This document shows, piece after piece, positions 2,599 through 53,479 of a DNA stretch of 64,000 nucleotides. Position numbers and translations under genes: made by a program. Each line of letters starts with the position of its first letter. Position 1 is the first letter of the stretch. A model generated the notes under the pieces. It was not told the origin of the DNA. It saw only the letters and a list, made by a program, of their open reading frames with translations, and made no database searches. The DNA comes from Gammaproteobacteria bacterium. Its GTDB lineage: Bacteria > Pseudomonadota > Gammaproteobacteria > SZUA-229. The DNA is taken from contig JAJDNP010000153.1 of the NCBI GenBank assembly GCA_022340645.1, positions 6,422-70,421 of the forward strand, in the 5' to 3' direction.

Positions 2599-2776
2599 TT
2601 CTGAGGTCTTTCGGATTAATCAGTCCTGTCAGCGTTTGTATCGCTATTGGCGGATACAAGTTTATCTGTATTAACCTGCCAGTCATCCGCGTATCACCAT
2701 CCGGTTTACCCGTTGCAGGTTTATCGTGTTACTATGGCTGCCGGCGTAAGATCGAGTATAACAGCACTAACAACGC

Positions 2777-6382: not shown

Positions 6383-6523
6383 ATACACTTTTATTGAGTA
6401 GTGTCACTAAATCAATGCCAGCATTACAATCAAATAATTTGATTGTTTTAATCATTTTATATTGTTTGACAGTAAAAAAAGCTTTTACTAGCATTTGCGA
6501 AATTCGACTCTGAACAGAAAATA

Positions 6524-21849: not shown

Positions 21850-21872
21850 TTGCTTTATGTGTAAATGAAAAC

Positions 21873-33949: not shown

Positions 33950-36376
33950 GTGACGGTTTTATCCGGGCAGATAACTGTGAAACATAATTATTTACTTTTT
34001 CCTGTTACCATCCTGTTTACAAGTTTGCTCATTGTTGCCTGTTCTTCAAAAGAAGCGTCGCTAACCGCGGACCAGGCGGTCATAGAATACGACCTGCTTT
34101 ATACCCTGCCCAAACAGCCGGTCGATTATGATGCCGAGGTCAGGCCCGTGCTGGAAAACCGCTGCGTGGTTTGCCATGGCTGTTACGACGCACCGTGCCA
34201 GTTGAAGCTTTCCTCGCCGGAAGGTATTCATCGCGGCGCCAGTAAGGTAAAGGTCTACAACGCCGCGCGCATCACTGCCGATGAGCCCACGCGCCTGTTT
34301 ATTGATGCCATGACCACGGAGGAATGGCGGCAGAAAGGTTTTGCGCCGGTACTCAACGAGGGTGAGGCGGGTCCGCGTGCCAACCTGGAAGACTCGGTGA
34401 TGTACCGCATGCTGCGGCAAAAACAGCTGTATCCGCAGGCGCGCACCGGTATGCTGAGTGATGATTTTGACCTTGGCCTCGACCGTGTACAGTCATGCCC
34501 GAAGCTGGACGAGTTCGATAAATATGCAGCCGAGCATCCCAAAGGCGGTATGCCCTATGCCATGCCCAACTTGAGCCACAAAGACTACAGCACGCTGGTG
34601 CACTGGCTGGCACAGGGTGCGCCCATGCCGCAGGACAGCCAGCCTTCAAAAGTCGCGGCCAGCCAGATAAAGCAATGGGAGGCTTTCCTTAACGGCGATG
34701 ATAACAGGCACAAACTGGTCAGCCGTTACCTCTATGAGCACCTGTTCCAGGCGCACCTGCATTTTGCAGGCACGGATGATCGCGAATTCTATCGCCTGGT
34801 ACGGTCGGCGACACCGCCAGGTGAAGACGTCGTTATTATTCCCACGCGGCGGCCTTATGGTGAGCCACCGGGGCCGACAGTTTATTACCGTATCGTGCGC
34901 CACCAGGGCAGCATCGTCGCCAAGACACACATGGTATACGAGCTGTCTGACAAACGCATGCAGCGTTACCGGGAGCTGTTCTTCAAGCCTGACTACGACG
35001 TAGCCGAGTTGCCCTCCTATGAAGCAACGGTTGCATCCAATCCGATCAAGACTTTCGCCGCGATACCGGTTAAATCACGCTACCGCTTCCTGCTGGACGA
35101 GGCACGCTTTTTTGTCGAAGGCTTTATCAAGGGGCCTGTTTGCCGCGGCCAGATCGCGCTGAATGTTATCGAAGACCAGTTCTGGGTGGTGTTCTTTGAT
35201 CCGGACGCAAAAATAATGTCGCTGAACGACAAGTTTCTGAATGACGTGGCTGACTACCTGGCATCGCCCGCCGAACTTGAAGACAATTTCAAACTGATCG
35301 GCGGCAAGTCATACTATGAAAAACTGTTCCAGAAATACGCGCGCACCAAGGATAGCCTTAGCGCAGACTTCAAGCCGGTAAAACTCGATGAGGCGATGGA
35401 TTATATCTGGGATGGCGACGGCAAAAATCCGAACGCCGCGCTTACCATTTTCAGGCACACTGACAGCGCTTCGGTTAACTTCGGTTTTATCGGTGATTAT
35501 CCGGAGACCGCCTGGGTGATTGATTTCTCGGTACTGGAGCGTATCCACTACCTGCTGGTGGCGGGTTACGACGTGTACGGCAACCTGGGTCACCAGCTGA
35601 ATACCCGGCTATACATGGATTTCCTGCGCACCGAAGGCGAGGACTATTTCCTGGTATTTCTGCCGGCGGACAGGCGGCAGGCAATACGTAATTCCTGGTA
35701 CCAGGGTATCCGCCAGAGCGACAAGGATGCTGAAGGCACGACCAGCTGGCTGAACAGGGAGTATGTTGTCGGCTATAAAACGGATGATGTGCAGCGCGAA
35801 CTTTTCCAGCAGATCGAGCACCGTCTGGACAAGCTGGCCGGCGGTGGTGATTACATCAATCGTTGTCTTGACGATAGCTGCATACCCAAACTGGGCCAGA
35901 ATGTTCAGCGTATTACCAAAGCCATGCGGAAGGCGGCAAAAATGGATGGCGGCATTGTGCAGTTTTTACCGGACCTGGCATTTATCCGCGTAAGAATGGG
36001 CGGCCGGCCGGAGGATGACCTTGCTTATACCATGATCAGCAACAAGGCATATAAAAGCGTCAGTTCAATGTTCGAGGGTGAACAAATCGGCGAACGCCGT
36101 GATTATGCATACGACACGCAAACCATTGTCAGCTGGCTGGAAGGGGCATACCCGAATTTCTTTTACGTGGTAGAGCTGGATGACATTGAAGCATTTGTCG
36201 AGCAGTACAACAACATAAAAAACCGCGATGATTACGAAGCATTTGTCTACCGCTTTGGCCTGCGCCGCACCAATGAGGATTTCTGGCTGAATGCTGACTG
36301 GTTTAACAGCAAGTACCGGCAGGAACAGCCAAGGCTTTCGGGTATCTATGACCTGAACCGTTACCAGAATCGATAG
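33950..36376 (+). CDS. cti: Fatty acid cis/trans isomerase (Cti), periplasmic haem c enzyme
   Basis: ~800-aa product with single N-terminal haem-binding CVVCHGCYDAPCQ motif and overall length/composition of Pseudomonas/Vibrio Cti; ORF starts with GTG (33950) or GTG at 33977 giving lipoprotein-like MKHNYLLFPVTILFTSLLIVAC signal. Confidence 0.8.
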   Translation: MTVLSGQITVKHNYLLFPVTILFTSLLIVACSSKEASLTADQAVIEYDLLYTLPKQPVDYDAEVRPVLENRCVVCHGCYDAPCQLKLSSPEGIHRGASKVKVYNAARITADEPTRLFIDAMTTEEWRQKGFAPVLNEGEAGPRANLEDSVMYRMLRQKQLYPQARTGMLSDDFDLGLDRVQSCPKLDEFDKYAAEHPKGGMPYAMPNLSHKDYSTLVHWLAQGAPMPQDSQPSKVAASQIKQWEAFLNGDDNRHKLVSRYLYEHLFQAHLHFAGTDDREFYRLVRSATPPGEDVVIIPTRRPYGEPPGPTVYYRIVRHQGSIVAKTHMVYELSDKRMQRYRELFFKPDYDVAELPSYEATVASNPIKTFAAIPVKSRYRFLLDEARFFVEGFIKGPVCRGQIALNVIEDQFWVVFFDPDAKIMSLNDKFLNDVADYLASPAELEDNFKLIGGKSYYEKLFQKYARTKDSLSADFKPVKLDEAMDYIWDGDGKNPNAALTIFRHTDSASVNFGFIGDYPETAWVIDFSVLERIHYLLVAGYDVYGNLGHQLNTRLYMDFLRTEGEDYFLVFLPADRRQAIRNSWYQGIRQSDKDAEGTTSWLNREYVVGYKTDDVQRELFQQIEHRLDKLAGGGDYINRCLDDSCIPKLGQNVQRITKAMRKAAKMDGGIVQFLPDLAFIRVRMGGRPEDDLAYTMISNKAYKSVSSMFEGEQIGERRDYAYDTQTIVSWLEGAYPNFFYVVELDDIEAFVEQYNNIKNRDDYEAFVYRFGLRRTNEDFWLNADWFNSKYRQEQPRLSGIYDLNRYQNR

Positions 36377-36391
36377 GCAAAGTTCACCGCA

Positions 36392-37579
36392 GTGCGTAAA
36401 TTTGCTATTGGTTTAATGATTTTTCTGGCTGGCTGGACGCTCTCCCGGATAGTGTATCAATACCTGGATAGCCATCAGACGGCTCACTTGCAGACTGTTA
36501 ATTCTACTCCGGTAAGGACAGCTAAATCGGATCACCCGACAGCGGTGAAACCGCCGGTATCCGGTGCGGTTGATGACATTGCTGATTTATTGCGGCGTAA
36601 TGAATTCGAGGCTGTCGTGCAACGCTATGAATCAGCGCAGGATAATGCGGGCGGGGCGGTTGCAGCCAACACCCGCTTGCAAATTCTGGCTTATGCTCGT
36701 GAGCTTATTGCGGCGCAGCATTTTCGTTCAGTAGAGCTACTATTACAGCGTTTTCTCGTGGCCAGCTACCGGGATGTCGATGCAAGTATACTGTTAGCTG
36801 AAGTTTATCTTGGCGAGGATAATTTTTCTGCAGCAATTGATAAGATATATGAAGCCAGGGGCGATGCTATTGATCCGGTAAACCTGCTGAGAATTAACAG
36901 CCGGATTCGCTCCATGGTGACGGAAATCTCGCAATCACTGGAAGCCACCGGCAAGCATAACGCCCTGCTTACGCTTTACCAGCAGCTCACCCAGCTGGAA
37001 CCCGATTATGCGCCCTGGTTTATCGGGCTGGCAAGTGCACAGCTGGCGCTGGCTGACAACGAGGCTGCCCGTCGTTCGCTACTGCTGGTAGCGCAGGATA
37101 TGAATGTCGGTGCACAGGCGCGTGCGATGCTTGCCGAACTTACCGTGGCGTTATCCGATGCGGCAGGTGCAGGAAGCCAGGATGCTGTGTCCGAGGTTGC
37201 CGGCATTCCGTTACAACGTCATGGTAATCATTTTATTGTTGATGCCAGGCAGAAAGGTGGCGGCAACATTCGCCTGCTGATTGATACCGGCGCCTCCATG
37301 ACGATACTCACGCCCGGAGCGTTAGAACAGGCCGGACTGCACTATCAAAATACCGGCAGGAGCGCGGTCTTTAATACCGCAAACGGCCCGGTACGGGCGC
37401 CGGTTTACACACTCGATTCGCTTGCTGTGGGTGACTGGCAGGTTAATCAGCTCAAAATAGGTGTGCTGGACCTGGCTGGCGGCTCAAACATCGATGGCCT
37501 GCTGGGGATGAATTTTCTGCGGCATTTTCAGTTTTTCATCGACCAGAACGAAGCCTTGCTGCGCCTTTCTGTTAATTAG
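36392..37579 (+). CDS. Retropepsin-like (clan AA, TIGR02281-type) aspartic protease with N-terminal TM anchor and TPR-like region
   Basis: C-terminal ~120 aa HFIVDARQKGGGNIRLLIDTGASMTILTP...IDGLLGMNFLRHFQFFIDQNEALLRLS contains DTGA active-site motif; GTG start 15 nt after cti stop. Confidence 0.7.
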   Translation: MRKFAIGLMIFLAGWTLSRIVYQYLDSHQTAHLQTVNSTPVRTAKSDHPTAVKPPVSGAVDDIADLLRRNEFEAVVQRYESAQDNAGGAVAANTRLQILAYARELIAAQHFRSVELLLQRFLVASYRDVDASILLAEVYLGEDNFSAAIDKIYEARGDAIDPVNLLRINSRIRSMVTEISQSLEATGKHNALLTLYQQLTQLEPDYAPWFIGLASAQLALADNEAARRSLLLVAQDMNVGAQARAMLAELTVALSDAAGAGSQDAVSEVAGIPLQRHGNHFIVDARQKGGGNIRLLIDTGASMTILTPGALEQAGLHYQNTGRSAVFNTANGPVRAPVYTLDSLAVGDWQVNQLKIGVLDLAGGSNIDGLLGMNFLRHFQFFIDQNEALLRLSVN

Positions 37580-37818
37580 CATAAAAGCATTTCCAGATAA
37601 GAGTATTGTAAAGTAAGTAACCTGGTGCTTTTGTAGGTATCAGAGAATGGCAGTTTTAAATCTGCTCAAATTTCGTCACGAGGGTAGATATCTATAAACA
37701 GTGGCTTAAAGATGCCACTGCTACATGAGAAAGTGAAATAAGGTCCAGGTTATCACGCCAGCAGGATTTTTTTTCTGCTACCTGTTTAATGAGTAATGCT
37801 GAAATCCAGGTAATCAGC

Positions 37819-38040
37819 TTAGCTGTCTTTTGGCTCTTCGTGTTTCAGCTTGTGCGGAAAGTGGCCACGCAACAACCAGCCTACGGCAATGCCGATCAGT
37901 ACAAGCAATACAAACATCAGTGCTCGCGACATGCCCATTTTCCAGAACAGAAAACGCACCTCGACAACCTCTACGTTTTGCACGATAAAAATAGTCGCGA
38001 GTGCGATCAATGCAAGTGTGGTGAATAATTTCAGGTTCAT
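37819..38040 (-). CDS. lapA: LapA-family (DUF1049) lipopolysaccharide assembly protein A
   Basis: 73-aa two-TM protein MNLKLFTTLALIALATIFIVQNVEVVEVRFLFW...; strong AGGAGG SD. Confidence 0.7.
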   Translation of the reverse strand: MNLKLFTTLALIALATIFIVQNVEVVEVRFLFWKMGMSRALMFVLLVLIGIAVGWLLRGHFPHKLKHEEPKDS

Positions 38041-38228
38041 TGCGGCCTCCTGGTTTGAGTCATTATATTTCTGGCGATGATTACAGCGATTTCAATTGTA
38101 TCTTTAAATGCTTTTTGTATGCATGGTTATAAAATATTATTGATAACTCAGATAGCAAAGCTGCATCGGCCATAGCGGTTGAAATTAAATACTGCTGCTG
38201 ATGGCATGCATGGTTGTTTCTACTCTTT

Positions 38229-39122
38229 TCAATGCATCTGATCGACGTCAACCAGGACCATAAAGCCGGAAACGACTTCCAGCAACTCGGAGGTAATCGT
38301 CTCCTGTCGTTGCTGACTGAAGTTGCGGGAGAGTTCAAGCAGGCGCTCGCTGATATTGCGCTCTGCCGCCTGCATTGAAGCCAGGCGGCCGGCGTTCTCG
38401 CTGGCAAGAGAAAACGCACAGGCCCGAAACACCCAGATAAATAAATACTGTCGTACGAGAGAGGCAAACAGGTCGGCACGTTCCATGGTGTAGGTGGGTA
38501 TCGAGCGGGAAGGCCAGGCGGGTGCATTGCTACCCTGAAATTGGGTGAACTCAAGCGGCAGCAATTGAGAAAGCTCGGCACGGCGTCCCTTGCCGCTGAG
38601 CTGGCGATTATAAAATAACAGGACTTTTGCTACCGTATGTTGTTTCTGCCAGCTTTCAATTTGCTGCAGGATAGCCTGTACAGTGGCGGTGATGCCGGCA
38701 ACGGAGCCCGGCACAAAAAATGATTCATGCACCGACTGGCCGGCTTCACGCAGACGTGCTTCCACTCGTGCCCCCACGGCAAGAACATGACGCCTGTCTA
38801 TCGCGATTTTTTTATTTTCCAGGGTTGCCAGGGTGAATTCCGTAATGTCCTCATTGAAGCGGCCGCACAGGCCGCGATCAGAACCGAATACCACAATGCC
38901 GACATCGGCCTGTTGCCGATTACGCGCCTCGGCCATGGGTACACGATCGGCAAACAGTACCTGCAGGCCAAGTTCGATAGTACGGCTGTAGTTGTGCATC
39001 GATTCGATAGCACGCTCATAAGGATAGATGCTGACCGCCGCCAGCGCCTTCATGGTACGCACGATAGACTGGATGTCCTGTACTGTTTCTATGCTGCGTT
39101 TCAGTGTGTCGAGGTTGGGCAT
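38229..39122 (-). CDS. atpG: N-type ATPase gamma subunit
   Basis: 297 aa; gamma-subunit N- and C-terminal helices (RSIETVQDIQSIVRTMKALAAVS...; SENAGRLASMQAAERNISERL); last gene of atpDCQRBEFAG operon. Confidence 0.85.
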   Translation of the reverse strand: MPNLDTLKRSIETVQDIQSIVRTMKALAAVSIYPYERAIESMHNYSRTIELGLQVLFADRVPMAEARNRQQADVGIVVFGSDRGLCGRFNEDITEFTLATLENKKIAIDRRHVLAVGARVEARLREAGQSVHESFFVPGSVAGITATVQAILQQIESWQKQHTVAKVLLFYNRQLSGKGRRAELSQLLPLEFTQFQGSNAPAWPSRSIPTYTMERADLFASLVRQYLFIWVFRACAFSLASENAGRLASMQAAERNISERLLELSRNFSQQRQETITSELLEVVSGFMVLVDVDQMH

Positions 39123-39134
39123 CGGCGCTTCCTG

Positions 39135-40634
39135 TCAGGTGGGCAGTGCCATGCCGGCGAGTTCGAGCAGTTGCTCACGATCCTTTTCGGCAAGTTTTCC
39201 CCCCGCCTGGATGCGCGCACAGGCCTCGCCGGCCTGCGACAGAACGATGTTGCGAATCGCCAGTTCAAAATGCGCTGCCTGTGTCAGCGGTATATCGTCA
39301 AACAAACCGGCCGTTACTGCCAGCAGTACTGCCACCTGTTCGCAGGCAGTCAGCGTTTCGGCTTCACTTTGTTTCAGAACCTCACGTACCCGTCGGCCGC
39401 GCTCAATGGCATGACGGGTGGCATCGTCCAGGCGGGTGCCAAATCGGGCAAAGGTTTCCAGCTCCTCGAACTGGGTGTAGCTGAGGCGCAAATCACCCGT
39501 TATGGCGCGAAACGCTGCGAGTTGTGCCTTGCCGCCGACGCGTGAGACGGATTTGCCGACATCGACCGCTGGCAAGTTGCCAAGCCGGAATAAATCAGGC
39601 GATAAATAGATCTGACCATCGGTGATGGAGACCAGGTTGGTCGGGATGTAAGCGGCGATATTTTGAGCCTCGGTTTCGATTATCGGCAGCGCAGTGAGCG
39701 AGCCGCCACCGCGCTTGCTATGCAGTTGGCTGGATCGCTCCAGTAGGCGCGAATGGATATAAAAGATATCGCCAGGAAATGCCTCACGACCCGGAGGCCG
39801 CCGCAATAACAGGGAAAGCTGTCGGTAGGCGTCAGCATGGCGGCTCAGGTCATCATAAATAATGAGCACATCCTGTCCCTGCTCCATAAAGTATTCCGCA
39901 ATGCTGGTGGCCGCATACGGCGTGATGTATTGCAGGCCTGGTGCGTCCTCAGCGCTGGCCACAACCATAATGGCGTGCGCCAGCGCGTTATGCGCACGCA
40001 GGGTAGAGAGCACACGCGCCACCGCGGAACTGCGCTGACCAATGGCGCAGTAAACACAGACCATGTCCTTGTCGCGCTGGTTGATCAAGGTGTTAATGGC
40101 GATTGCCGACTTGCCTGTTTGCCGGTCACCCAGGATCAGCTGGCGTTGTCCCCGGCCAATGGGAATGAGGGCATCGATGGCCTTGATCCCGCTTTCCAGG
40201 GGACGAACCACCGGCGCCCGGTCGAGGATCGCCGGGGCTTCGCGTTCAATCGGCCAGCGTGTTATGGCTTGCACTTCGCCCAGGTCATCAAGCGGTTGTC
40301 CCAGGCCGTTCACCACCCTGCCCAACAGACCGGGACCGACAGGCACATCGATGACCCTTGCGGTGCGTTTGACTTCCATGCCTACGCGCAGAGTTTCACT
40401 GTTACTGAGTAGAATCAGGCCCACCTCATCCGGATCAAGATTGAAGGCAATGGCATGGCTACCGTCAGCACACCGCACCAGTTCGTGTGCGAGCACACCC
40501 GGTAATCCGGAGGCCAGTGCAACGCCCTGTCCCACGCGGGTAATCGTTCCGGTTTCCACGATGTGTAAGGTGGGCGATTGGCTGAGCACCTGTTGTAGTG
40601 AGTTGACGGTGTCTTCGAGGGTTTCGATCAACAT
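39135..40634 (-). CDS. atpA: N-type ATPase alpha subunit
   Basis: 499 aa with P-loop GDRQTGKS and full F1-alpha similarity. Confidence 0.9.
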
Positions 40635-40654
40635 GGTTGCGATAGTGTGTAAAT

Positions 40655-41419
40655 TTATTTACTGGACGTTGTTATAGCCAGCTGGCTAGAAAGCTGTTCA
40701 TCGATATGAGTGAGGTAACTTTCAATGTTCCATTCCAGCTTGAATCCCGGTCCTTTCAGGGTGATGCCGCAGAGCAACTCCGGCGCCTGTTCGAAATGTA
40801 CAGCCAGTGCAGCATCGATTTGTTCATGAATAATCGCCGTAATCTTTTCACGCATCGCAGCAGAGAGCGTAAACCGGCTTTCTACCATGAGTCCTTTATC
40901 CGTTGCAGTTTGCACCAGCTTCGCCTTGTCTTGTGCAGAGACCTCGGCCAGTTTACGGAGAAAAACGCTTAGCATCTGATTTTCCAGTTCACTATCCGCC
41001 AGCTGGCCAAGGGCCTGACGCGCCACCAGACAAACCTGTTCACCCACGATCTTGCGCGCCTGGTCAAGAAAAGCCTGTTGTTCGCGTTTCACTTCTTCAT
41101 GCCAGCGGCTGCGAATGGTGGCGATCTCGCTGCGCAACTCATCCATGAGTTGTGAGCGCTGTGCTTCAGCTTCACGTTTCGCCTGTTCGATAAGCTGATT
41201 ACGCTGCTGTTCGAAGGTGTGGGTTTTTTCGCGGTATTCGTCGCTTTGTTGCCGGGCAAGGGCCGATTGCTGTGCTGCCTCTTCCAGGCGCAGGGCGACG
41301 CGTTCCTCGCGGCGATTCATGGCGGCGATAATGGGCCGGTAGAGGAACCGTTTTAAGAGATATACCAGCACCAGAAAGTTGATGATCTGGGCAAAGGTCG
41401 TTATCCAGTCGACCTGCAT
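40655..41419 (-). CDS. atpF: N-type ATPase subunit b (extended, b/delta-like C-terminus; no separate delta gene)
   Basis: 254 aa: N-terminal TM helix then long charged coiled coil, C-terminal region delta/OSCP-like; absence of atpH in operon is diagnostic of N-ATPase (established knowledge). Confidence 0.8.
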
Positions 41420-41421
41420 GG

Positions 41422-41700
41422 TCAGCCTCCGGTCTTACTCACGACATGATCCCAGAACGGGTTGGCGAAGATGAGAATCATGGTGACTACAAAACAGTAA
41501 ATCGCGGTAGATTCGACCATGGCGAGGCCAACGAACAGTGTACGTGTGATGGTGTCCGCTTCATCAGGCTGCTGGGCAATGGCACTGAGCGCCTGCGCCA
41601 GGGCACGCGCTTCACCAAATGCCGGCCCGATGGAACCGATGGCGATGGTCAGGCCTGCCGTGATAATGGAAACCATACCTATCAAACTTATATCCTGCAT
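41422..41700 (-). CDS. atpE: N-type ATPase c subunit (rotor) with two-carboxylate ESTxxY ion-binding signature
   Basis: 92-aa hairpin; helix-2 motif MVESTAIY (Glu, Ser, Thr, Tyr at positions equivalent to E65/S66/T67/Y70 of Na+-binding c rings) and Glu (AFGEAR) at the helix-1 position equivalent to Q32. Confidence 0.85.
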   Translation of the reverse strand: MQDISLIGMVSIITAGLTIAIGSIGPAFGEARALAQALSAIAQQPDEADTITRTLFVGLAMVESTAIYCFVVTMILIFANPFWDHVVSKTGG

Positions 41701-41702
41701 AA

Positions 41703-42434
41703 CTATTGACCTCCTGCGGGAGCTGTACCGCCCGGTTCCGGACGATTTTGGGTTGATGTGTTATTTTTTTTGCGTGCTACCAGTGCTGAGGAAATGTAGA
41801 CCATCGCCAGTATGGCGAAGATATAAGCCTGAATCATTCCTGTTAGCAGGCCGAGTAACTGCAACACAATTGGAAACAAAAAGGGGGTAATACTGATGAG
41901 CACTGCCACCACCACGGTACCACTCATCATGTTGCCAAACAGACGCACAGCCAGGGCGATGGTGCGTGAGACTTCACCGATGATATTGAAGGGCAGCATG
42001 AACAGGCTGGGACGGGTATATTGCCTGAGATAATTTAACAGGCCCTGACGCTGGATACCATACAGCGGAACGGCCAGGAATACACAAATCGCCAGCGCGG
42101 CGGTAGTCGACAATGAGCCTGTCGGTGGTCGATAGCCGGGTATGATGGTCAGCAGATTGGCGAAGGCGATGAAGAGGAAAATGGTTCCGACAAAGGACAG
42201 ATATGGATCCGGGTCCTCCCGCCCGACATCCCGTATTTGATCACGGATAAGGCTCACCAACATTTCCATAAAGGTTTGCCAGCGGGAAGGGTGTACATCA
42301 TCAGACAGGCGGCGTGTTGCCAGCCAGGTGAGGCACAGGATTAAGGCCATGACCAGCCAGGTAAACACCAGCGTGGCATTAATTTTCAGCATCTCCCATT
42401 GCCAGATGATGACGTTATCCGGATTGAAGGTCAT
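41703..42434 (-). CDS. atpB: N-type ATPase a subunit
   Basis: 243 aa polytopic; conserved stator arginine context LAVRLFGNMMSG. Confidence 0.85.
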   Translation of the reverse strand: MTFNPDNVIIWQWEMLKINATLVFTWLVMALILCLTWLATRRLSDDVHPSRWQTFMEMLVSLIRDQIRDVGREDPDPYLSFVGTIFLFIAFANLLTIIPGYRPPTGSLSTTAALAICVFLAVPLYGIQRQGLLNYLRQYTRPSLFMLPFNIIGEVSRTIALAVRLFGNMMSGTVVVAVLISITPFLFPIVLQLLGLLTGMIQAYIFAILAMVYISSALVARKKNNTSTQNRPEPGGTAPAGGQ

Positions 42435-42745
42435 GGTACCTGTCCTGTATGTGCATTAGCATGACGGGAGCCGGGCTTGATGTGCTGTACAAGCAAGGCG
42501 CGGGAGACGAGCATACCTAGCAGGGCGATTAAAAGTTGTTGCCACGCATCGGCAAACAACAGGTACAGTACGAACACCACGGTGATCGTGCGTAGCAGCA
42601 GGCTGAGTCCAAACCAGGCAGCGGTGTAGCTGCGATGCGTCAGCCGGCGCAGGCTTAACCATAAAACGCCGTAGTAGAAGAACCCCAGGACCACGCCCAC
42701 AAGCGCCGGATAGACATACGTGAACAATACTTGCATCAAGGTCAT
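42431..42745 (-). CDS. atpR: N-ATPase-specific small membrane subunit AtpR
   Basis: 104 aa, 3 TM, 4-nt ATGA overlaps with both neighbours; position between atpQ and atpB as in described N-ATPase operons. Confidence 0.7.
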   Translation of the reverse strand: MTLMQVLFTYVYPALVGVVLGFFYYGVLWLSLRRLTHRSYTAAWFGLSLLLRTITVVFVLYLLFADAWQQLLIALLGMLVSRALLVQHIKPGSRHANAHTGQVP

Positions 42746-43103
42746 TATTTCTTTGTCTCGTCTATTATGCTCTCCGCGCGGAAGTCTGGCCGGGACTCAA
42801 ATTTGCGTTCCCGACTCACCCAGCGCCAGGCATTGATACAGCCCAGCAGGATGCCAACAAACAACAGGCTAAGTGTCCAGGAGATTCGCTCTGCTGGCCA
42901 ATGACGATCCAGCCATATCCCCAGTACGGCGCCCAGCACCGTTGGAATCGCTACCGACCAGCCAATCAGGCCGAACATACCAAAGCCAAACCAGACGGTA
43001 CGCTTTTTCTGTGCCGCGGCCCAGCGCCGGCGCGCGGCCTTTTTCTGCACCTGTTCCTCCAGTCCCCCTGGCGTGCCTTGAGGGGGATTAGATTTTCGCT
43101 CAA

Positions 43104-43107
<4 letters not shown>
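42745..43107 (-). CDS. atpQ: N-ATPase AtpQ (AtpZ/AtpI-like) membrane protein
   Basis: ORF-track start (43290) overlaps atpC; the internal ATG at 43105-43107 (MIERKSNPP...) forms an ATGA overlap with the atpC stop; two TM helices (FGFGMFGLIGWSVAIPTVLGAVLGIWL; LSLLFVGILLGCINAW). Confidence 0.7.
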
Positions 43108-44920
<1,813 letters not shown>

Positions 44921-45078
44921 CTACTATACAGTATCATAAGCCGGATATTAACCATCAAGGTTGCCGAAGCAACTGATGCAGAAACATGGCGCAGCAAGGA
45001 CTATCGGCTAAACAGTCCGCCAGGCTATGACAGTAATGTACATAACAGCATCACACACGAATAAGTTTTGAATAAAAC

Positions 45079-45498
45079 ATGAACCAATCCGTGACAGCAA
45101 CAAATTACTGGAGTGCGCAGCTCGATGAATTATTTTTGACCTCGGGCGGCAGTTGCGATGGACTGGCGACAGTGACTGCAACAGGGCACTTACTGCGACA
45201 TGGACGCAATACCCTGCTTGCAGATGATCGGCGAAGCAAAGCCTTGCGCCTGTTCATGGATCGATTTCGTAGTTTGCCGGTATTAATTCTGGTCATCGCT
45301 CTCATCCTGCGCGCCTGGCTGGATGCCCTGATCGTACCGGCTGTTGTATTCATCACCGCGGTGCTCAGTTTTATTCAGGCATTTCACGCCATCCACGCGG
45401 CAGCAATGTTACGCCAACAGGTTTCGGCCAAAGCCACGGTGCCGGGCGGCGGCCACAACCTGTTAATCCCGTACAAATATCATATGCCCGCGATGTAA
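45079..45498 (+). pseudogene. Remnant of a P-type cation-transporting ATPase (N-terminal Cation_ATPase_N + TM1-TM2 only, 139 codons)
   Basis: Product LTSGGSCDGLATVTATGHLLRHGRNTLLADDRRSKALRLFMDRFRSLPVLILVIALILRAWLD...AVLSFIQAFHAIHAAAMLRQQVSAKATV matches the first ~130 residues of P2/P3-type ATPases, then terminates; no actuator, phosphorylation (DKTGT) or nucleotide domains follow (trkH starts 38 nt later). Confidence 0.55.
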
Positions 45499-45535
45499 AA
45501 TAGTAATTACTAAACCCATAGGTGTATATCCAGCG

Positions 45536-47008
45536 ATGCACGAAGAAACCATCAATGTCCTGATGTATGCAGTTCGACCACGAGTCGTATTAAAATACTG
45601 TGGCCAGCTGTCCCTGATGCTGGCGCTTTTAACACTGGCGCCGCTATTATTTTCCCTGGCTGAGACAGACTGGCAACTGGTCACCTGTTACACAATCATA
45701 TGCAGCGGTTTGCTTCTCATTGGTGGTCTGCTGGCGCGCTTACCGGCACCGGTGCGCATCCAGAGCAATGAGGCGCTGACGGTGACAGCGATCATGTTCC
45801 TGTTGGCGCCCTTGCTCATGTCATGGCCGCTGATGATTGCGGATGTAGCGTACATCGATGCCCTGTTCGAGGCGATCTCCGGTATTACCACGACCGGTCT
45901 TTCGACATTAGGGAGCATTGCAGGCCGGGCAGATACATTATTGTTTGCCCGTGCCTGGCTGCAGTGGTATGGCGGCCTGGGAATCGTTGTCCTGTCGGTA
46001 GCGATCCTCATGGGCCATCAGGCCGCTGCGCGCCGACTGACGGACCCGATAGAAAGCGGCGATATGTTAGTCATGACAGCACGCACGCATGCCCAACGAA
46101 CGTTATTTATATATATACTTTTGACCCTGGTCGGGATGACACTGGTGTGGCCACTTAGTGGCAATGGCTTCACCGCGCTGCTGCATGTCCTGTCGGCGGT
46201 ATCTACCGGAGGTTTTTCCAATAACGATGCCAGCCTCGCGGGACTGGGGTCGCGTCCTGTGGCAATGGCATTGATGCTGATATCATTTCTGGGGGCGGTC
46301 TCGCTACCACTGTACTGGCGAGTGGCGCATGCCGGGTGGCGAGGAGGCTTGCATGCCTTGTTCACGGATGTCGAGCTGCGTGCACTATTCCTGGCCTGCC
46401 TGCTGGTCGGAGCGATCTTGAGCGGGTTGAACTGGCTCAATGGTACAACTGCGCCGTGGTACCATGGGTTCATGTTAGGCATTTCGGCACAGACCACGAC
46501 AGGTTTTGCTACACAAGCGGTAGCCAGTGCGGACCCTGCCTCAAAACTGGTAATGATCATTTCCATGTTAATAGGCGGTAGTGTCGGTTCATCGGCAGGG
46601 GGCATAAAGTTATTGCGCCTGCTCATTTTTTTCAGACTCCTGCAATTAATCTTGCATCGAACAGGCTTAACGCCCCATGCCGTTTTTGTAGCAAAACTGG
46701 CGGGGCATCGGCTTGAAAATGATGATATCATCAGGGCGCTGCAACTCATCCTGCTGTTTATTATTATTATGCTGTTGTCCTGGTTACCCTTTTTGGTCAT
46801 GGGTTATGAACCCCTGAGCGCCCTGTTTGAAGTAGTCTCCGCCTGTGGCACAGTGGGGCTGAGCAGCGGTATCGCACGCCCGGAACTTGAACCTGTGCTC
46901 AAAGCCGTGCTGTGTTTTGACATGCTGGCGGGGCGTCTGGAAATTATTGCCTTGCTGGTAGTGCTGTATCCACGTAACTGGTTTGGCCGGAGGGAGGAAA
47001 TAAAATGA
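45536..47008 (+). CDS. TrkH/KtrB-family K+ transporter membrane subunit
   Basis: 490 aa polytopic protein with repeated selectivity-filter-like glycine motifs (SGITTTGLST, STGGFSN, TTTGFAT, GTVGLSSG). Confidence 0.85.
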   Translation: MHEETINVLMYAVRPRVVLKYCGQLSLMLALLTLAPLLFSLAETDWQLVTCYTIICSGLLLIGGLLARLPAPVRIQSNEALTVTAIMFLLAPLLMSWPLMIADVAYIDALFEAISGITTTGLSTLGSIAGRADTLLFARAWLQWYGGLGIVVLSVAILMGHQAAARRLTDPIESGDMLVMTARTHAQRTLFIYILLTLVGMTLVWPLSGNGFTALLHVLSAVSTGGFSNNDASLAGLGSRPVAMALMLISFLGAVSLPLYWRVAHAGWRGGLHALFTDVELRALFLACLLVGAILSGLNWLNGTTAPWYHGFMLGISAQTTTGFATQAVASADPASKLVMIISMLIGGSVGSSAGGIKLLRLLIFFRLLQLILHRTGLTPHAVFVAKLAGHRLENDDIIRALQLILLFIIIMLLSWLPFLVMGYEPLSALFEVVSACGTVGLSSGIARPELEPVLKAVLCFDMLAGRLEIIALLVVLYPRNWFGRREEIK

Positions 47009-47673
47009 GGACAGTTTTTATCGGCGCTGGCCCTGTCACCACGATGACAGCCCAGCAATTGCTCGCTAATGATTATGAGGTCGTCATTATCGAGAAGGAC
47101 AAGGCGCTCATCGACGAACTGAGTGCAGATCTTGGCGCCGGCTTCATTCATGGTGACGGCAGCAAGCCGGCAATCCTGCGTGAGGCAGACCCGGCGGCGA
47201 CAGATTTTCTGTTCTCGCTTACCGGCAATGACCAGAATAACATCCTCGCCAGCCTGGTGGGCCGCTCACTGGGGTTTAAACGTGTCGTCACGCGGATTGA
47301 AGACCCCGCCTATGAACACATCTGTATTGAACTGGGGCTGGAAGATATCATTATCCCGGACTATACCATCGCCCGTTACCTGGCGGACATGTGTGCGGGG
47401 CAGAACCCATTACAATTGTCAGCGGTCATTAAAGGCAAAGCGCGTGTTTTCTCCTTTGTCGCACGCGAACAGGACGAGGGAACAGTAAAAGACCTGAAGC
47501 TGCCTGATGACTGCCGGGTTATGTTTTTGTACCGCAACGACAATTTCATTTTTGCTGATGAGGATACATCACTGTTGAAAAATGATGAAGTCGTTATTAT
47601 TTCTCGTCTCAAAGCCTTGCCGGAGCTGGAGGCGCGCTGGAACCTCAAAGGTAAAGGAAATCAGCAGGCATGA
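47005..47673 (+). CDS. TrkA/KtrA-family K+ uptake regulatory subunit (RCK N + C domains)
   Basis: 222 aa; Rossmann GxGxxG (VFIGAGPVTTMTAQQL) and TrkA-C; ATGA start/stop overlap with trkH-like gene. Confidence 0.85.
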   Translation: MRTVFIGAGPVTTMTAQQLLANDYEVVIIEKDKALIDELSADLGAGFIHGDGSKPAILREADPAATDFLFSLTGNDQNNILASLVGRSLGFKRVVTRIEDPAYEHICIELGLEDIIIPDYTIARYLADMCAGQNPLQLSAVIKGKARVFSFVAREQDEGTVKDLKLPDDCRVMFLYRNDNFIFADEDTSLLKNDEVVIISRLKALPELEARWNLKGKGNQQA

Positions 47674-48051: not shown

Positions 48052-49353
48052 TCACATAACAGGCGTGTTTTCACTTTTTTCAAAACTTAGTGCCGGTTTG
48101 CGACGACACACAGGCTTGGTCAATAACAACTGTATCGTTCCGATAGAATGTTCCCTGAATCCGCCTTCGCAGTAACACAGGTAAAAATTCCACATGCGTA
48201 CAAACGTTTCTGGATATCCCAGCTTTTGTATGTTTTCAAGATTTTTAAAAAATCGTTGGCGCCATCTTGCCAGCGTGATGGCATAGTGTTGACCGATGTC
48301 TTCTAATTGATAGAAACGCATATCTGTGTGTTTTGCAACGCTCTCGGCAAGCACACTGACTGAAGGCAGGCTGCCGCCAGGGAAGATATATCGCTGGATG
48401 AAGTCGACCTCGTTTTTTGCAGCCTGGAAACGTTGATCAGCGATTGTTATTGACTGTAATAACATCATGCCATCCGGCTTCAATAATTTGCTGCAATGTT
48501 CGAAGTAAGTGCTGTAGTATTCGTGTCCAACGGCTTCAATCATCTCGATTGAAACCAGCTTGTCAAACTGCCCGCCAAGGTTGCGGTAATCTTCACACAG
48601 CAGGGTGACCCTGTCCTGCAGGCCGAGCTGATTTATTCTTTGTTTGGCATAGTTGTACTGTTGCTGTGAAATAGTAGTGGTTGTTACATGGCAGCCATAA
48701 TGCTTTGCCGCATAGATGGCGAAACCTCCCCAGCCAGTACCAATTTCAACAACATGATCGTTTTCATTGAGCTGTAATTTTTGACAGATCCTGTCCAGCT
48801 TGGCTATGCTGGCCTGTTCCATGGACATATCTTCACGTTCGAAGATACCGCTGGAATACATCATGGTTGGATCAAGAAATAGCTGGAACATCTCGTTACC
48901 AAGATCGTAATGCGCTTCTATGTTTTTTCTGCTTCCGGAAAGGGAGTTACGATGCAGCAAGTGAAAGACCTTGTGTAATGGCAGCATGAGTTTTCCGAAA
49001 CCGCCATCGATAGCATTGAGCACATGTTCGTTGTTGAGGATGATACGAACCAGGTCAGTCAGTTCATGACAGTCCCAGCTTCTCGCCATATAGGCTTCGC
49101 CGGAACCAACAGTGCCGCCGAAAACCACGTCACTATAAAAACCGGGATCATGCACAATAACCGTTGCCTGTAGCGGAAGGTCAGCGTTATCTTTACCAAA
49201 TGTGTACTCGTGATGACCTTCTTTGAGCGTGATTTTGCCATGGATGATTAGGCGGAACTTCATTAAAAATATCTTTTTAGCAATCTGATCTATCCAGCGA
49301 TAAGATGATTTTTGCCTGAATGGCCTGGTAAGGGCGATGGTGTTCGATTTCAT
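48052..49353 (-). CDS. cfa: Cyclopropane-fatty-acyl-phospholipid synthase family SAM-dependent methyltransferase
   Basis: Cfa hallmarks GEAYMARSWDC, SAM motif VVEIGTGWGGFAIYAA, C-terminal YCEGGF; start set at the ATG (49351-49353) forming an ATGA overlap with the DUF1365 gene stop. Confidence 0.85.
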   Translation of the reverse strand: MKSNTIALTRPFRQKSSYRWIDQIAKKIFLMKFRLIIHGKITLKEGHHEYTFGKDNADLPLQATVIVHDPGFYSDVVFGGTVGSGEAYMARSWDCHELTDLVRIILNNEHVLNAIDGGFGKLMLPLHKVFHLLHRNSLSGSRKNIEAHYDLGNEMFQLFLDPTMMYSSGIFEREDMSMEQASIAKLDRICQKLQLNENDHVVEIGTGWGGFAIYAAKHYGCHVTTTTISQQQYNYAKQRINQLGLQDRVTLLCEDYRNLGGQFDKLVSIEMIEAVGHEYYSTYFEHCSKLLKPDGMMLLQSITIADQRFQAAKNEVDFIQRYIFPGGSLPSVSVLAESVAKHTDMRFYQLEDIGQHYAITLARWRQRFFKNLENIQKLGYPETFVRMWNFYLCYCEGGFREHSIGTIQLLLTKPVCRRKPALSFEKSENTPVM

Positions 49354-50159
49354 GCTGATTTCACCGATTTCGGTGCCTCTTTTCCGGGGTGATTTACAAA
49401 TGGTATTTTTTTTATCCATAAAAGCAGCGCCTGGTAATATATAGCGGTGACCACTTTCAGGGTAACCATGGGGAACTGTATTAGCGTCAATGCCAGGTTT
49501 GCACCTGTTATCTCACGCTTTTCAAGTTTCAGTGTGGCATCAAACACTTTTTTATCCTGCTGGTAATTTTCCATGTGCACTGATAATGCATTGTTCGGTA
49601 CGGAGAATCGCCAGTCGTACTGCATGTCCATCGTCATGAATGGAGAGACATGAAAACGTTTGTTTTCAAAATAACGATGCAGCCTGGCATCAGGCGCACT
49701 ATTGCCAGTGTGATAATCGGCAGCCCGATTATTCCTGGAATCAAGTACGTAACAGTATTGCTCACCCCAGGGCGTGTTGTTAACTTCGGCTACGATGAAA
49801 TCAAGTTGCTTGCCCGCTTTGTCGTAGCAATAGTAAAAACTGACCGGGTTGAAACTGAAACCAAAATAACGCAGGTGTGTCAGTAAACGGATCGGTCCCT
49901 CTGGCCGCCGGCCGGTTTCAGCTTCGATATGATTCCGCACGCTGGTATCAAGCGGCAGAATTTTATCACCGAGATGGTCTCTGCGGCGGAACGAAGCAAT
50001 GTTTGTTTTCTCGATAGACCACAACCAGAAACGGTCAAACACCGATGGCAGTTCAGACAGGTCCAGGTACATCAGGAACAGTTTGTAACTGAAATGGTGT
50101 GGTCTCGGGGTAAAGCGGCGATGCCTAACTTGCCCAACGTAAAGACAGCTTTTCTTCAT
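49350..50159 (-). CDS. DUF1365 family protein (Cfa-associated)
   Basis: N-terminus MKKSCLYVGQVRHRRFTPRPHHFSYKLFLMYLDLSEL matches DUF1365 consensus; conserved position between FAD oxidoreductase and cfa. Confidence 0.7.
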   Translation of the reverse strand: MKKSCLYVGQVRHRRFTPRPHHFSYKLFLMYLDLSELPSVFDRFWLWSIEKTNIASFRRRDHLGDKILPLDTSVRNHIEAETGRRPEGPIRLLTHLRYFGFSFNPVSFYYCYDKAGKQLDFIVAEVNNTPWGEQYCYVLDSRNNRAADYHTGNSAPDARLHRYFENKRFHVSPFMTMDMQYDWRFSVPNNALSVHMENYQQDKKVFDATLKLEKREITGANLALTLIQFPMVTLKVVTAIYYQALLLWIKKIPFVNHPGKEAPKSVKSA

Positions 50160-51405
50160 TACTGATGTCCTGTTTAAAGTGTGACAAAGCATTCAGCGCA
50201 CTCACCACGCCATCTTCATGAAAACCATTGCGCCAGTAAGCGCCGCAGTAGTATGTTCTGCCGGTGCCGTTAATCAGCCTGTGGTTCTGCTGTGCGATGA
50301 TGCTCTCGGGGGTAAATACCGGGTGATGATATTCGATAGTCCTGATGATGTTCTGCTGTGCAATCTGGTCCGTGTAGTTCAGGGTCACGCAATAGGTCTT
50401 GTTTGATCGCAGGCCCTGCAGGATATTCATATTGTATGTCAGCGCTACATTGGCTCTTGGCTGTTGTGGTATATGGTAATTCCATGATGCCCAGGCTTTT
50501 TTCCTGATCGGCAGCAGTGATTCATCGGTATGCAGTACAGCTTCATTTTTCTGGTACTGAATGGCAGATAATGTTGCGCGCTCCAGGGCTGATGGCTGCT
50601 GCAGCATATTCAGCGCCTGGTCGCTGTGTGCAGCGATAAAGACATAATCAAATCTTTCGATATCATGGCTTCGAGTATGTACTTCTACATGGTCATCAAA
50701 GCGAACAATTTTATCTACCGTGCTACCAATGCGTATGCTGTCTTCAAAACCACTGATCAGTTTCTTCACATAAGTATGTGAGCCGCCCTTGATGACATAC
50801 CATTGCGGCCTGTCGTTAATACTCAGCAGGCCATGGTTTAAGAAGAACCTGAAGAAGAAGCTGGCGGGGAAGCTGAACATGTCCTGAGGCCTGGTCGACC
50901 AGATAGCAGCACCCATCGGTACGATGTATTTATTGATGAAGATGTCACTGTAGTTGCCGGCCTGCAGGAAATCACCAAGACTTAAATCGGTATTGTTAAC
51001 TTCGATGGAAGCAGACGCCTCACGGTTGAAGCGCAAGATGTCAGCAATCATCTGGTAGAAAGCGGGCTTTAATATATTGCTGCGCTGTGCAAACAGTGTG
51101 TTGAGATTGTTGCCGTTATATTCGAGAGCGGTTTGTTCACATTTGACACTGAAGCTCATCTCCGTTTTCTGGATATCAACATCAAGCTCGTTGAGCAGCC
51201 TCATGAAATTGGGATACGTCCTGTCGTTCAACACGATGAATCCGGTATCAATATTTAATTCTTTACCGGCATCAAAGATACTATGGGTATGCGTATGCCC
51301 GCCGACATGGGTGTTCTGTTCGAACAGGGTGATGTCGTGTTCTTTGTTGAGATGATAGGCGGTGACATTGCCGGCAATGCCGCTGCCAATGATTGCTATC
51401 TTCAT
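50125..51405 (-). CDS. NAD(P)/FAD-dependent oxidoreductase (amine-oxidase-like, COG2907 type)
   Basis: N-terminal dinucleotide-binding MKIAIIGSGIAGNVTAYHL...LFEQNTHVGGH; 426 aa. Confidence 0.8.
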   Translation of the reverse strand: MKIAIIGSGIAGNVTAYHLNKEHDITLFEQNTHVGGHTHTHSIFDAGKELNIDTGFIVLNDRTYPNFMRLLNELDVDIQKTEMSFSVKCEQTALEYNGNNLNTLFAQRSNILKPAFYQMIADILRFNREASASIEVNNTDLSLGDFLQAGNYSDIFINKYIVPMGAAIWSTRPQDMFSFPASFFFRFFLNHGLLSINDRPQWYVIKGGSHTYVKKLISGFEDSIRIGSTVDKIVRFDDHVEVHTRSHDIERFDYVFIAAHSDQALNMLQQPSALERATLSAIQYQKNEAVLHTDESLLPIRKKAWASWNYHIPQQPRANVALTYNMNILQGLRSNKTYCVTLNYTDQIAQQNIIRTIEYHHPVFTPESIIAQQNHRLINGTGRTYYCGAYWRNGFHEDGVVSALNALSHFKQDISNEEKLSLRWAS

Positions 51406-51974
51406 TGCAGCACGTCCTCTTTATGTTTGCTGTTGCTATCTGCTGTTTGCGGCCAGACCTGGGGGACTTTCTGTACTTTACTTATGTCGTAACCCTGTGA
51501 TTCCATGAATGCCAGTAACTCTGTATAACTGCTATCGTCGATGCTGGATTGTCTCGACATCAGCCAGACATAGTCGCGCTTGCTGCGACCGATGATGGTA
51601 GTCTGGTAAGCGTCATCGAGATAGATGACACGGTACTCGGCCTTGAATGGCCAGATGAACTGCATGCCCCATAATGCATTCGACTGTTTGTCGACGATAA
51701 ACCCGGTCGGGTTGTATTGCTTGCGTTCGCCGTCGGCTGAGCCTTGCGAGAAGGTGAAGGTGGTGGCGATGGTGCCGTCAGCGTTCCTCGCGTATGATTC
51801 GATCGCGTTATAAGCATCCTTTTCAATAAATGTCGGTATGTTCGCGATCACATACCAGTTACCAATAAATCGATCCAGGTCAACATAATCTACCGTGTGT
51901 ATCGGTTTCGCTGGCTGGTTACTGCAAGAGGCCAGTAAGGTAAATAATGCGGGCAGTGTTAATGTTTTTTTCAT
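51402..51974 (-). CDS. blc: Bacterial lipocalin (Blc-like) lipoprotein
   Basis: Lipoprotein signal MKKTLTLPALFTLLASC and lipocalin SCR1 motif DLDRFIGNWYVIANIP. Confidence 0.8.
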   Translation of the reverse strand: MKKTLTLPALFTLLASCSNQPAKPIHTVDYVDLDRFIGNWYVIANIPTFIEKDAYNAIESYARNADGTIATTFTFSQGSADGERKQYNPTGFIVDKQSNALWGMQFIWPFKAEYRVIYLDDAYQTTIIGRSKRDYVWLMSRQSSIDDSSYTELLAFMESQGYDISKVQKVPQVWPQTADSNSKHKEDVLQ

Positions 51975-52000
51975 GTTACTTCATCTCTTTATGGCAGCGG

Positions 52001-52693
52001 TTAGGGCATGGCATATCGAATGATATGGTTGTTTTCTGTCAGCGATTCGAGTGCCAGCCAGTGATTGTCATCTGAATACCAGAGGTCGATCTGCAGCCTG
52101 TCGCCAGTTAATCGATAACGTTTGGCGCTGACGGGTTCACCCTTATGCGTTATGGTTTCATTGCCGATAAAGCTGCTTTCTACTTCGACCATTTCGCCCG
52201 TCTGTGCGTTGAGCAAAGATCTCTCGTGGAGAAATCCGGGGTCCCAGTAGGCGAAAGTTTTTATACAGCCCGGATAACTGTCCTGTGATTGCGTTTTGTT
52301 AACAGTGAAGGCGCCGTTATCCTGGGTGCCTGAAATAATGTACTTATCGCCATTATCATTGGTGACAGAGTTAATACTTTTCAGGCACCCGCCTTTCCAT
52401 TGTTCGACGTTATCGTGTTCATAACTGTAAGCATTGATGAAGAAAAATTTGACGTTGAATCGAGCGCTGCTGTAAATCTCTTTGTGCACGTCGGTGTTAA
52501 TCATGGAAAAGTTGTGGTAACCGATTGCGTCATCATCAAGGAATACTTTAAAACGCCAGTTTTTGTCGCTTGCGGTGCTTGCCAGGACCGGATTGCAGCA
52601 GGCAATAATCGTTAACAAAGATAACGTCAAGAAGGCGTGTCTGTAAGTGTTATAAGCTGTTACAGGATTTGCTGACATGATATTCATAATCAT
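52001..52693 (-). CDS. Secreted/periplasmic hypothetical protein conserved in cfa-type clusters
   Basis: ORF-track start (53044) overlaps upstream gene by 350 nt; start at the MIMNIMSANP... ATG (52691-52693, TGATG stop/start junction) gives a signal peptide (FLTLSLLTIIACCNPVLAS). Confidence 0.5.
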   Translation of the reverse strand: MIMNIMSANPVTAYNTYRHAFLTLSLLTIIACCNPVLASTASDKNWRFKVFLDDDAIGYHNFSMINTDVHKEIYSSARFNVKFFFINAYSYEHDNVEQWKGGCLKSINSVTNDNGDKYIISGTQDNGAFTVNKTQSQDSYPGCIKTFAYWDPGFLHERSLLNAQTGEMVEVESSFIGNETITHKGEPVSAKRYRLTGDRLQIDLWYSDDNHWLALESLTENNHIIRYAMP

Positions 52694-53478
52694 CACGACC
52701 TCATTGCTTTCTTTGGGAACCAGGGAAAAAAGGCACTGGTTGATCTGCGGTAACCGGCATACCCCGGGCGGCGCTCGCTTATGGTACTTTCCAGCAGGCT
52801 TACCCCGGAGACCTTTAATAGTAGAATTGACATCAGTACTGGCGAGATAATGCTCCACCAGTAACCTGATGACAGCGCGAACAGGAAAAATGCCCACCAG
52901 ACACAGAACTCGCCAAAATAATTCGGGTGCCTGGTATAACGCCAAAGGCCGGTGTCCAGTACTTTCCCCCTGTTCTCTTCCCGTGATTTGAAACGGGCAA
53001 GCTGCAGGTCGCCGACGGTCTCGAAATACAGTCCGGTAAACCACAGAGTGAAAGCGAAATAATCGAGCAGGCTTATTTCTGTTTCAGCTGCAAAAGTACT
53101 CATCAGCGGCAGTGACACGACTAACGCCAGAAAGGCCTGCAACAGGAAAACGATATACAGGCTTTTAAATGCAAAGTTAGGTTGATTGTTTTCTCTTATT
53201 TGCTGGTAACGAGCGTCCTCTGGCTGGCCCCGGTTTCGCCAGCTGATATATGCTGACAGCCGAATGGCCCATACACACAATAATAAAAGCACCAGCAGGT
53301 TTCGCTCTGTAATAACGCTATTCATAAAGAAAAAACATAATCCGGCAGCGAGTATCATCAGCGACCAGAAGCTGTCCACGATAGCAACGTCATTTTTTAC
53401 CAGGCTAACAATCCATAATAAGATCGCAATGACAAGTAATACCACTGATGCGATAGCAAAGGCGTGCAGCTCAAACAT
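52693..53478 (-). CDS. DUF1295 (steroid 5-alpha-reductase / ICMT-like) integral membrane protein
   Basis: 261 aa polytopic with C-terminal RHPNYFGEFCVWWAFF motif typical of DUF1295/ICMT-like methyltransferase-fold membrane proteins. Confidence 0.75.
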   Translation of the reverse strand: MFELHAFAIASVVLLVIAILLWIVSLVKNDVAIVDSFWSLMILAAGLCFFFMNSVITERNLLVLLLLCVWAIRLSAYISWRNRGQPEDARYQQIRENNQPNFAFKSLYIVFLLQAFLALVVSLPLMSTFAAETEISLLDYFAFTLWFTGLYFETVGDLQLARFKSREENRGKVLDTGLWRYTRHPNYFGEFCVWWAFFLFALSSGYWWSIISPVLMSILLLKVSGVSLLESTISERRPGYAGYRRSTSAFFPWFPKKAMRS

Positions 53479-53479
53479 G

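Follow-up and report, generated by a model that had tools for sequence, protein, structure and literature searches.

A complete sodium-binding motif with a second glutamate in the N-ATPase c-subunit of an uncultured gammaproteobacterium

The stretch of DNA analysed here, 64,000 nucleotides in length and hereafter called the window, contains a nine-gene operon for an N-ATPase whose c-subunit carries one glutamate in each of its two helices together with the complete ESTxxY signature of Na+-binding c-rings. From the residues lining the ion site, we consider it likely that the enzyme is an ATP-driven N-ATPase extruding Na+. The two-glutamate site is the usual and already published state of N-ATPases, and nothing about it is novel at this locus. 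The operon genes and the two site segments of the c-subunit, from the first gene to the last, are:

43493..44899, minus strand: atpD, N-ATPase beta subunit (TIGR03305, 775.8 bits against a cutoff of 752)
43104..43496, minus strand: atpC, epsilon subunit (TIGR03166, 129.1 bits against a cutoff of 100.1)
42745..43107, minus strand: atpQ, small membrane subunit of 120 amino acids (TIGR02230, 124.5 bits)
42431..42745, minus strand: atpR, the hallmark membrane subunit of N-ATPases, 104 amino acids (TIGR03165, 53.1 bits, just below the cutoff of 55.5)
41703..42434, minus strand: atpB, a-subunit with the stator arginine R164 in AVRLFGN (TIGR03306, 349.9 bits against 302.1)
41422..41700, minus strand: atpE, N-ATPase c-subunit, a helical hairpin of 92 amino acids
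41605..41622, minus strand: AFGEAR, helix-1 site segment of the c-subunit (residues A27-R32), with E30 as the second carboxylate
41497..41520, minus strand: MVESTAIY, helix-2 site segment of the c-subunit (residues 61-68), with the complete ESTxxY Na+ motif
40655..41419, minus strand: atpF, long b-delta-like b-subunit of 254 amino acids (TIGR03321, 245 bits against 224.7)
39135..40634, minus strand: atpA, alpha subunit (TIGR03324, 766.2 bits against a cutoff of 750.5)
38229..39122, minus strand: atpG, gamma subunit (TIGR03323, 304.6 bits against a cutoff of 282.35)

The nine genes all lie on the minus strand, between 44899 and 38229, and follow the canonical N-ATPase order atpD-C-Q-R-B-E-F-A-G, with successive junctions of -4, -4, -1, -4, +2, +2, +20 and +12 nt from atpD to atpG. 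All seven core subunits scored above the cutoffs of the NCBIfam models for the 'alternate F1F0 ATPase', and the alternate model also outscored the general TIGR F-type model for beta, a, c, b, alpha and gamma, six of the seven. The RLFGN segment of the a-subunit aligned with RLFGN of the chloroplast a-subunit. A separate delta (atpH) ORF was absent from the operon, between 44899 and 38229, in both the ORF list and the profile search. AtpR proteins are described as having about 100 amino acids and three transmembrane segments, two of them with arginines; the window protein, with its profile score slightly short of the cutoff, was counted as a family member because it carries the transmembrane arginines R52 and R82 and because PF12966 (AtpR) is annotated on the identical gene of a metagenome contig. 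The mechanical ORF of atpQ is a longer one, of 181 amino acids with a GTG start (42745-43290, minus strand) and overlapping atpC, and only its residues 62-161 matched TIGR02230. On the same identical metagenome contig, atpQ is called as a gene of 120 amino acids with PF09527, and an ATG start at 43107 would overlap the atpC stop by 4 nt. The true start of atpQ is thus probably ATG 43107, giving 120 amino acids, and not the upstream GTG. Taken as a whole, the operon is a textbook N-ATPase by the definition that Dibrova, Galperin and Mulkidjanian gave (PMC2881411). A scan for promoters and terminators over 37500-45600 produced no more matches than expected from shuffled sequences; a site resembling -35/-10 elements lies at 44951-44923, upstream of atpD, in a scan whose matches overall were no better than shuffles. 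N-ATPases are normally a second enzyme beside an H+-translocating F-ATPase; within the 64-kb window there is no second atp operon.

The identity of atpE is established by several lines of evidence. Its product scored 156 bits against TIGR03322, 'alternate F1F0 ATPase, F0 subunit C', with a cutoff of 130.85 in NCBIfam, and the first-pass annotation, which had assigned the gene to an N-ATPase, is borne out by this score and by the surrounding atpDCQRBEFAG operon with its AtpQ and AtpR. Read on the minus strand, the ORF at 41422..41700 gives the protein MQDISLIGMVSIITAGLTIAIGSIGPAFGEARALAQALSAIAQQPDEADTITRTLFVGLAMVESTAIYCFVVTMILIFANPFWDHVVSKTGG. A protein that is 100% identical is deposited at NCBI as 'MAG: F0F1 ATP synthase subunit C [Gammaproteobacteria bacterium]', and several metagenome contigs also encode the identical sequence. 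The AlphaFold model of the monomer has helices at residues 2-42, 50-78 and 81-89 with a pLDDT of 77.5, and Foldseek retrieved c-ring subunits as its top matches, 3ZK1 among them; the monomer model supports the hairpin fold of a c-subunit only, and we took the arrangement of the site from homology. Two plus-strand ORFs lying over atpE, at 41446-41709 and 41519-41890, were rejected as antisense artefacts, the gene itself being well supported.

Both strings cited in the first-pass annotation, AFGEAR and MVESTAIY, are present in the ORF at residues 27-32 and 61-68. Hand-checking on the window sequence placed the codon of E30 at 41611-41613 (ttc on the plus strand, gaa on the minus strand), that of E63 at 41512-41514, S64 at 41509-41511, T65 at 41506-41508 and Y68 at 41497-41499. 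The register of the ion site was derived from HMMER searches against PDB chains, two MAFFT alignments and BLASTP against 3ZK1, which were all concordant. In the numbering of Ilyobacter tartaricus 1YCE and Fusobacterium nucleatum 3ZK1, E30 corresponds to Q32/E32, M61 to V63, V62 to A64, E63 to E65, S64 to S66, T65 to T67 and Y68 to Y70, so that M61 and V62 occupy the two backbone-carbonyl positions. The complete Na+ motif, a helix-1 Gln or Glu together with ESTxxY at I. tartaricus positions 32, 65, 66, 67 and 70, is therefore in place, as had been proposed for both the Glu-Ser-Thr-x-x-Tyr string and the Glu in place of Gln32 of Ilyobacter. The c-subunit also has the two carboxylates, E30 aligning with E32 of 3ZK1 and the helix-2 Glu predicted by homology to face it. 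The mapping would fail with a register shift in helix 2, for which we looked in the alignments to solved c-rings and found none. Compared with the c11 Na+ rings there is a single one-residue indel, in helix 1 on the N-terminal side of the site; the spacing between E30 and E63 is 33 residues, equal to that between Q32 and E65; and the HMMER alignments to the Spirulina c15 and chloroplast c14 rings were ungapped.

The closest structural precedent for the site is the F. nucleatum c11 ring (3ZK1/3ZK2), which shares with our c-subunit the identical set of side-chain ligands E/E/S/T/Y and an equal loop length between the glutamates. The two proteins are only 36-40% identical; the F. nucleatum ring has a GxGxGxG packing motif in helix 1 in contrast to SxGxAxG in the window, and the C-terminal tail of our c-subunit, FANPFWDHVVSKTGG, is longer. 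The c11 ring of I. tartaricus (1YCE), 35-37% identical, aligns exactly over ESTxxY and the backbone positions, but it belongs to an F-type synthase and has Gln32 where the window c-subunit has Glu. In the F. nucleatum ring, the ligands of Na+ are E32, E65, S66, the carbonyl of V63 and a water molecule (Schulz et al. 2013; PMC3692424), the water being held by T67 and the A64 carbonyl (PMC3692424). Crystallography, free-energy calculations and transport assays showed that E32 is constitutively protonated, at pH 5.3 as well as at pH 8.7, that Na+ alone is transported, and that the extra Glu is energetically equivalent to Gln (PMC3692424).

By homology with this ring, one Na+ would be bound per site between adjacent hairpins of the c-ring, with the E63 and E30 carboxylates, the hydroxyl of S64, the M61 backbone carbonyl and one water molecule as its ligands. 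The water ligand would in turn be held by T65 and the V62 carbonyl, while Y68 and S64 would be hydrogen-bonded to E63, with Y68 stabilising it. We infer from the F. nucleatum precedent that E30 would remain protonated through the whole cycle and behave like the Gln of one-carboxylate Na+ rings; if E30 is always protonated, each c-subunit would therefore carry one Na+ and no H+. E63 would hand the ion over at R164 of the a-subunit, and ATP hydrolysis would expel Na+, a direction of pumping that we regard as the probable one.

To see how widely the signature is shared, we surveyed relatives of the c-subunit at increasing distance. Of the 120 nearest protein clusters, built at 90% identity and themselves 84-100% identical to the c-subunit, 118 have full-length sequences, and every one of these has a helix-1 Glu and reads M[IV]ESTAIY in helix 2; two are truncated at the N-terminus and keep the helix-2 motif. 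The best species-level matches were a Granulosicoccaceae MAG at 87% and Thiohalobacter thiocyanaticus at 82%. In a library clustered at 50%, E/M/E/S/T/Y was the commonest type (11 of 43), followed by the Burkholderia type E/M/E/T/M/Y (9 of 43), where the 43 are full-length single-hairpin relatives at least 50% identical to the query, with V/A-type multi-hairpin proteolipids and fragments excluded. Of 80 N-ATPase operons in other species, a sample taken as one genome per species with the pattern LFV[GS][LM]AM[IV]E and hence biased to relatives of the query, 53 have the exact signature of the window c-subunit; the remaining signatures were EMESIY (14), QMESTY (10), EMESVY (2) and EMESMY (1). The c gene was surrounded by the N-ATPase gene set at all 80 loci, which come from Gammaproteobacteria, Desulfobacterota, Nitrospirota, Planctomycetota, Bacillota, Cyanobacteria, Methanothrix and others. 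In the cyanobacterial and Atribacterota neighbourhood, seeded with the Picosynechococcus PCC 7002 c-subunit, E together with ESTxxY was present in 116 of 119 sequences. The motif is thus an inherited family trait and not a chance match.

These frequencies agree with the survey of Dibrova et al. (2010), in which most N-ATPase c-subunits have a Glu in the middle of both helices, the Na+-coordinating Gln is replaced by Glu in nearly all, and most have the full ESTxxY (PMC2881411). The earlier description of the combination as one found in a small set of Na+ or promiscuous rotors does not hold for N-ATPases, in which it is the majority state in our counts and has been published as such since 2010; among Pfam c-subunits as a whole, only about 1% have both features (PMC2881411). 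Genome papers routinely report the Na+ motif, for example for a haloalkalitolerant Nitrospira. N-type c genes were also found on 57 plasmid records, among them pAQ7 (PCC 7002) and pREB4 (Acaryochloris marina). These two share with the window the operon order atpDCQRBEFAG and the site E...MVESTAIY, their c-subunits are 69-75% identical to that of the window, and the helix-1 motif IGSIGPA.GE is common to all; in the MAFFT alignment the pAQ7 site matches residue for residue. Nothing substantive differs from the window, the host of which is an uncultured gammaproteobacterium and the location of which appears to be chromosomal.

Several published observations bear on what such a site transports. 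N-ATPases with the Glu pair and ESTxxY were predicted to be Na+ pumps (PMC2881411), and the survey rule of ProAD assigns Na+ to a complete motif and H+ whenever any ligand is missing (PMC11738941). By this rule, the pairing of an H+ F-ATPase with a Na+ N-ATPase is the commonest, in 164 genera (PMC11738941). The N-ATPase of A. halophytica has been reported to be Na+-coupled, as cited in PMC5376962; a protein search seeded with the PCC 7002 c-subunit returned no named Halothece or Aphanothece entry. Counting against Na+ coupling, the mRNA of the Synechococcus PCC 7002 N-ATPase, which has the site found in the window, did not rise at high salinity (PMC3468840). The first-pass annotation held that ion specificity could not be decided from the sequence. 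We agree that sequence alone is no proof, but a complete motif amounts to a plain Na+ prediction under the rule used in the field (PMC11738941). For the enzyme of the window, Na+ coupling is accordingly the reading we favour with reasonable though not strong confidence, and the rest of the probability is divided among promiscuity, H+ coupling and a role as a synthase.

One of these alternatives is a promiscuous rotor, which would carry both Na+ and H+ in a ratio set by external Na+ and pH, as has been reported for the A1Ao enzyme of Methanosarcina acetivorans. The promiscuous M. acetivorans ring has a two-carboxylate site too (PMC3692424), and Dibrova et al. considered H+ pumping by N-ATPases possible in low-sodium or acidic settings (PMC2881411). 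However, the promiscuous behaviour of that ring has been ascribed to its lack of the residues that hold the water ligand, whereas the window c-subunit has T65. Since T65 is present, the site is expected to favour Na+ as much as the F. nucleatum and I. tartaricus sites do, and we regard promiscuity as unlikely.

An H+-coupled N-ATPase, which would bind and pump protons physiologically for pH homeostasis in the manner of the Burkholderia pseudomallei c17 ring, is a further alternative. The B. pseudomallei N-ATPase ring, the sole N-type ring tested directly, is a c17 ring with the site E30/E61/T62/M63/Y66 and proved H+-specific, so the earlier sequence-based prediction of Na+ coupling failed (Schulz et al. 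2017; PMC5376962). In addition, all c-rings are intrinsically H+-selective, with Na+ coupling requiring a large excess of Na+ (PMC3692424), and ProAD predicts H+-type N-ATPases in 136 genera (PMC11738941). The B. pseudomallei enzyme shares with that of the window its class, its operon type, the helix-1 Glu (E30) and the helix-2 Tyr, and Burkholderia-type c sequences are about 54-57% identical to our c-subunit. The sites nevertheless differ: c17 has ETMxxY, with Thr for Ser and Met for Thr, where the window has ESTxxY. It also has AxGxAxA in helix 1 and lacks the C-terminal extension. In the MAFFT alignment, a Burkholderia-type plasmid sequence from B. pyrrocinia reads MIETMAIY against MVESTAIY, and the window c-subunit, with E-S-T, does not have the Burkholderia-type H+ site E/E-T-M-x-x-Y. 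From the published site residues and this alignment, the H+-coupled N-type ring therefore differs from that of the window exactly at the Ser and the water-holding Thr, both of which our c-subunit has; in its side-chain ligands our c-subunit matches the crystallographically proven Na+ site of F. nucleatum in full. B. pseudomallei, which had been suggested beside I. tartaricus and F. nucleatum as a structural comparator, thus differs from the window c-subunit at the decisive residues (PMC5376962; Burkholderia-type alignment). H+ coupling is in our view rather improbable. A Na+-driven ATP synthase, running on the sodium-motive force of other pumps, is very improbable: F-type enzymes are reversible and the SxGxAxG motif may suggest a large ring favouring synthesis at low driving force, but N-ATPases occur beside a normal ATP synthase, deletion of the M. 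acetivorans N-ATPase operon left growth and ATP synthesis unaffected (PMC2881411), and adjacent genes for Na+-pumping respiratory enzymes or decarboxylases were not found in the window.

Dibrova et al. proposed that the two arginines of AtpR pair with the two glutamates of the c-subunit (PMC2881411). Of 69 AtpR sequences taken from other operons, 57 have arginines at the positions of R52 and R82, and we detected no co-variation of these residues with the helix-1 Glu, the arginines being kept in all five readable Gln-type operons, a small sample. As judged from these comparisons, there is no support for the pairing of AtpR arginines with c-subunit glutamates.

The helix-1 packing motif S23xG25xA27xG29 (residues 23-29; 41614-41634 of the window, minus strand) is common to 57 of 80 related loci. 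It falls between the SxGxGxG of c14 and c15 rings and the Burkholderia c17 motif AxGxAxA, and differs from the GxGxGxG of all known c11 Na+ rings, which hints that the ring may be large. The clade might then have a large c-ring that bears a complete Na+ site, a tentative suggestion that we think somewhat doubtful. If true, this would be the first case of a Na+-coupled F/N-type rotor with a ring other than c11; about 4.7-5.7 Na+ would be moved per ATP, and the Na+ site in a large ring would be a property of many N-ATPases and not of the window locus alone.

Two neighbours on the opposite strand adjoin the operon:

45079-45498, plus strand: P-type ATPase fragment, an ORF of 139 amino acids (PF00690; TIGR01524 and TIGR01647 far below cutoff)
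45536-47673, plus strand: trkH and trkA (K+ uptake), divergent from atpD

The 139-amino-acid ORF matches just the N-terminal 100 residues or so of Mg2+/H+-type P-type ATPases and ends 38 nt before trkH; it looks like a leftover piece of a P-type ATPase gene, situated between trkHA and the N-ATPase operon. We considered whether trkHA and the P-type fragment form a conserved salt module with the N-ATPase and rejected this, because tblastn found no match to trkH, trkA or the P-type fragment in any of the flanks of the 80 other N-ATPase loci (about 2.5 kb beyond atpD). The adjacency of trkHA to the operon is probably coincidental.

Farther out, the operon is flanked by genes for membrane-lipid remodelling at 33950-36376 (plus strand) and 48052-55085 (minus strand). 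The former encodes a fatty-acid cis/trans isomerase, Cti (PF06934, 857 bits), and the latter a cyclopropane-fatty-acid synthase, a DUF1365 protein, an amine oxidase, a lipocalin, DUF6134 and DUF2878 proteins and a second CMAS-type methyltransferase. At 60065-63980 (minus strand), a universal stress protein with tandem domains adjoins two Proton_antipo_M membrane subunits (MrpD/Hyf-like), both below every NCBIfam cutoff, in a cluster that runs past the window end and may belong to a cation/proton module, Mrp-like or other. At 1216-4901 (minus strand), an MgtE Mg2+ transporter stands beside a 622-amino-acid protein of the Na+/Pi cotransporter family, and this cotransporter-family protein points to the use of a Na+ gradient by the organism. 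The window also encodes a 918-amino-acid protein with a cytochrome c554-like multihaem region and TPR repeats and no NCBIfam match, followed by an FG-GAP/ASPIC (UnbV) protein (19093-23645, plus strand), and a bacterial protein of 440 amino acids matching the Pfam family MATCAP, the microtubule-associated tyrosine carboxypeptidase (PF08014, 360 bits; 5066-6388, minus strand).

For this locus, annotation of the operon as an N-ATPase with a predicted Na+-binding c-ring is more informative than the generic 'F0F1 ATP synthase subunit C', since the uncultured gammaproteobacterium probably has in it a system for ATP-driven export of Na+.
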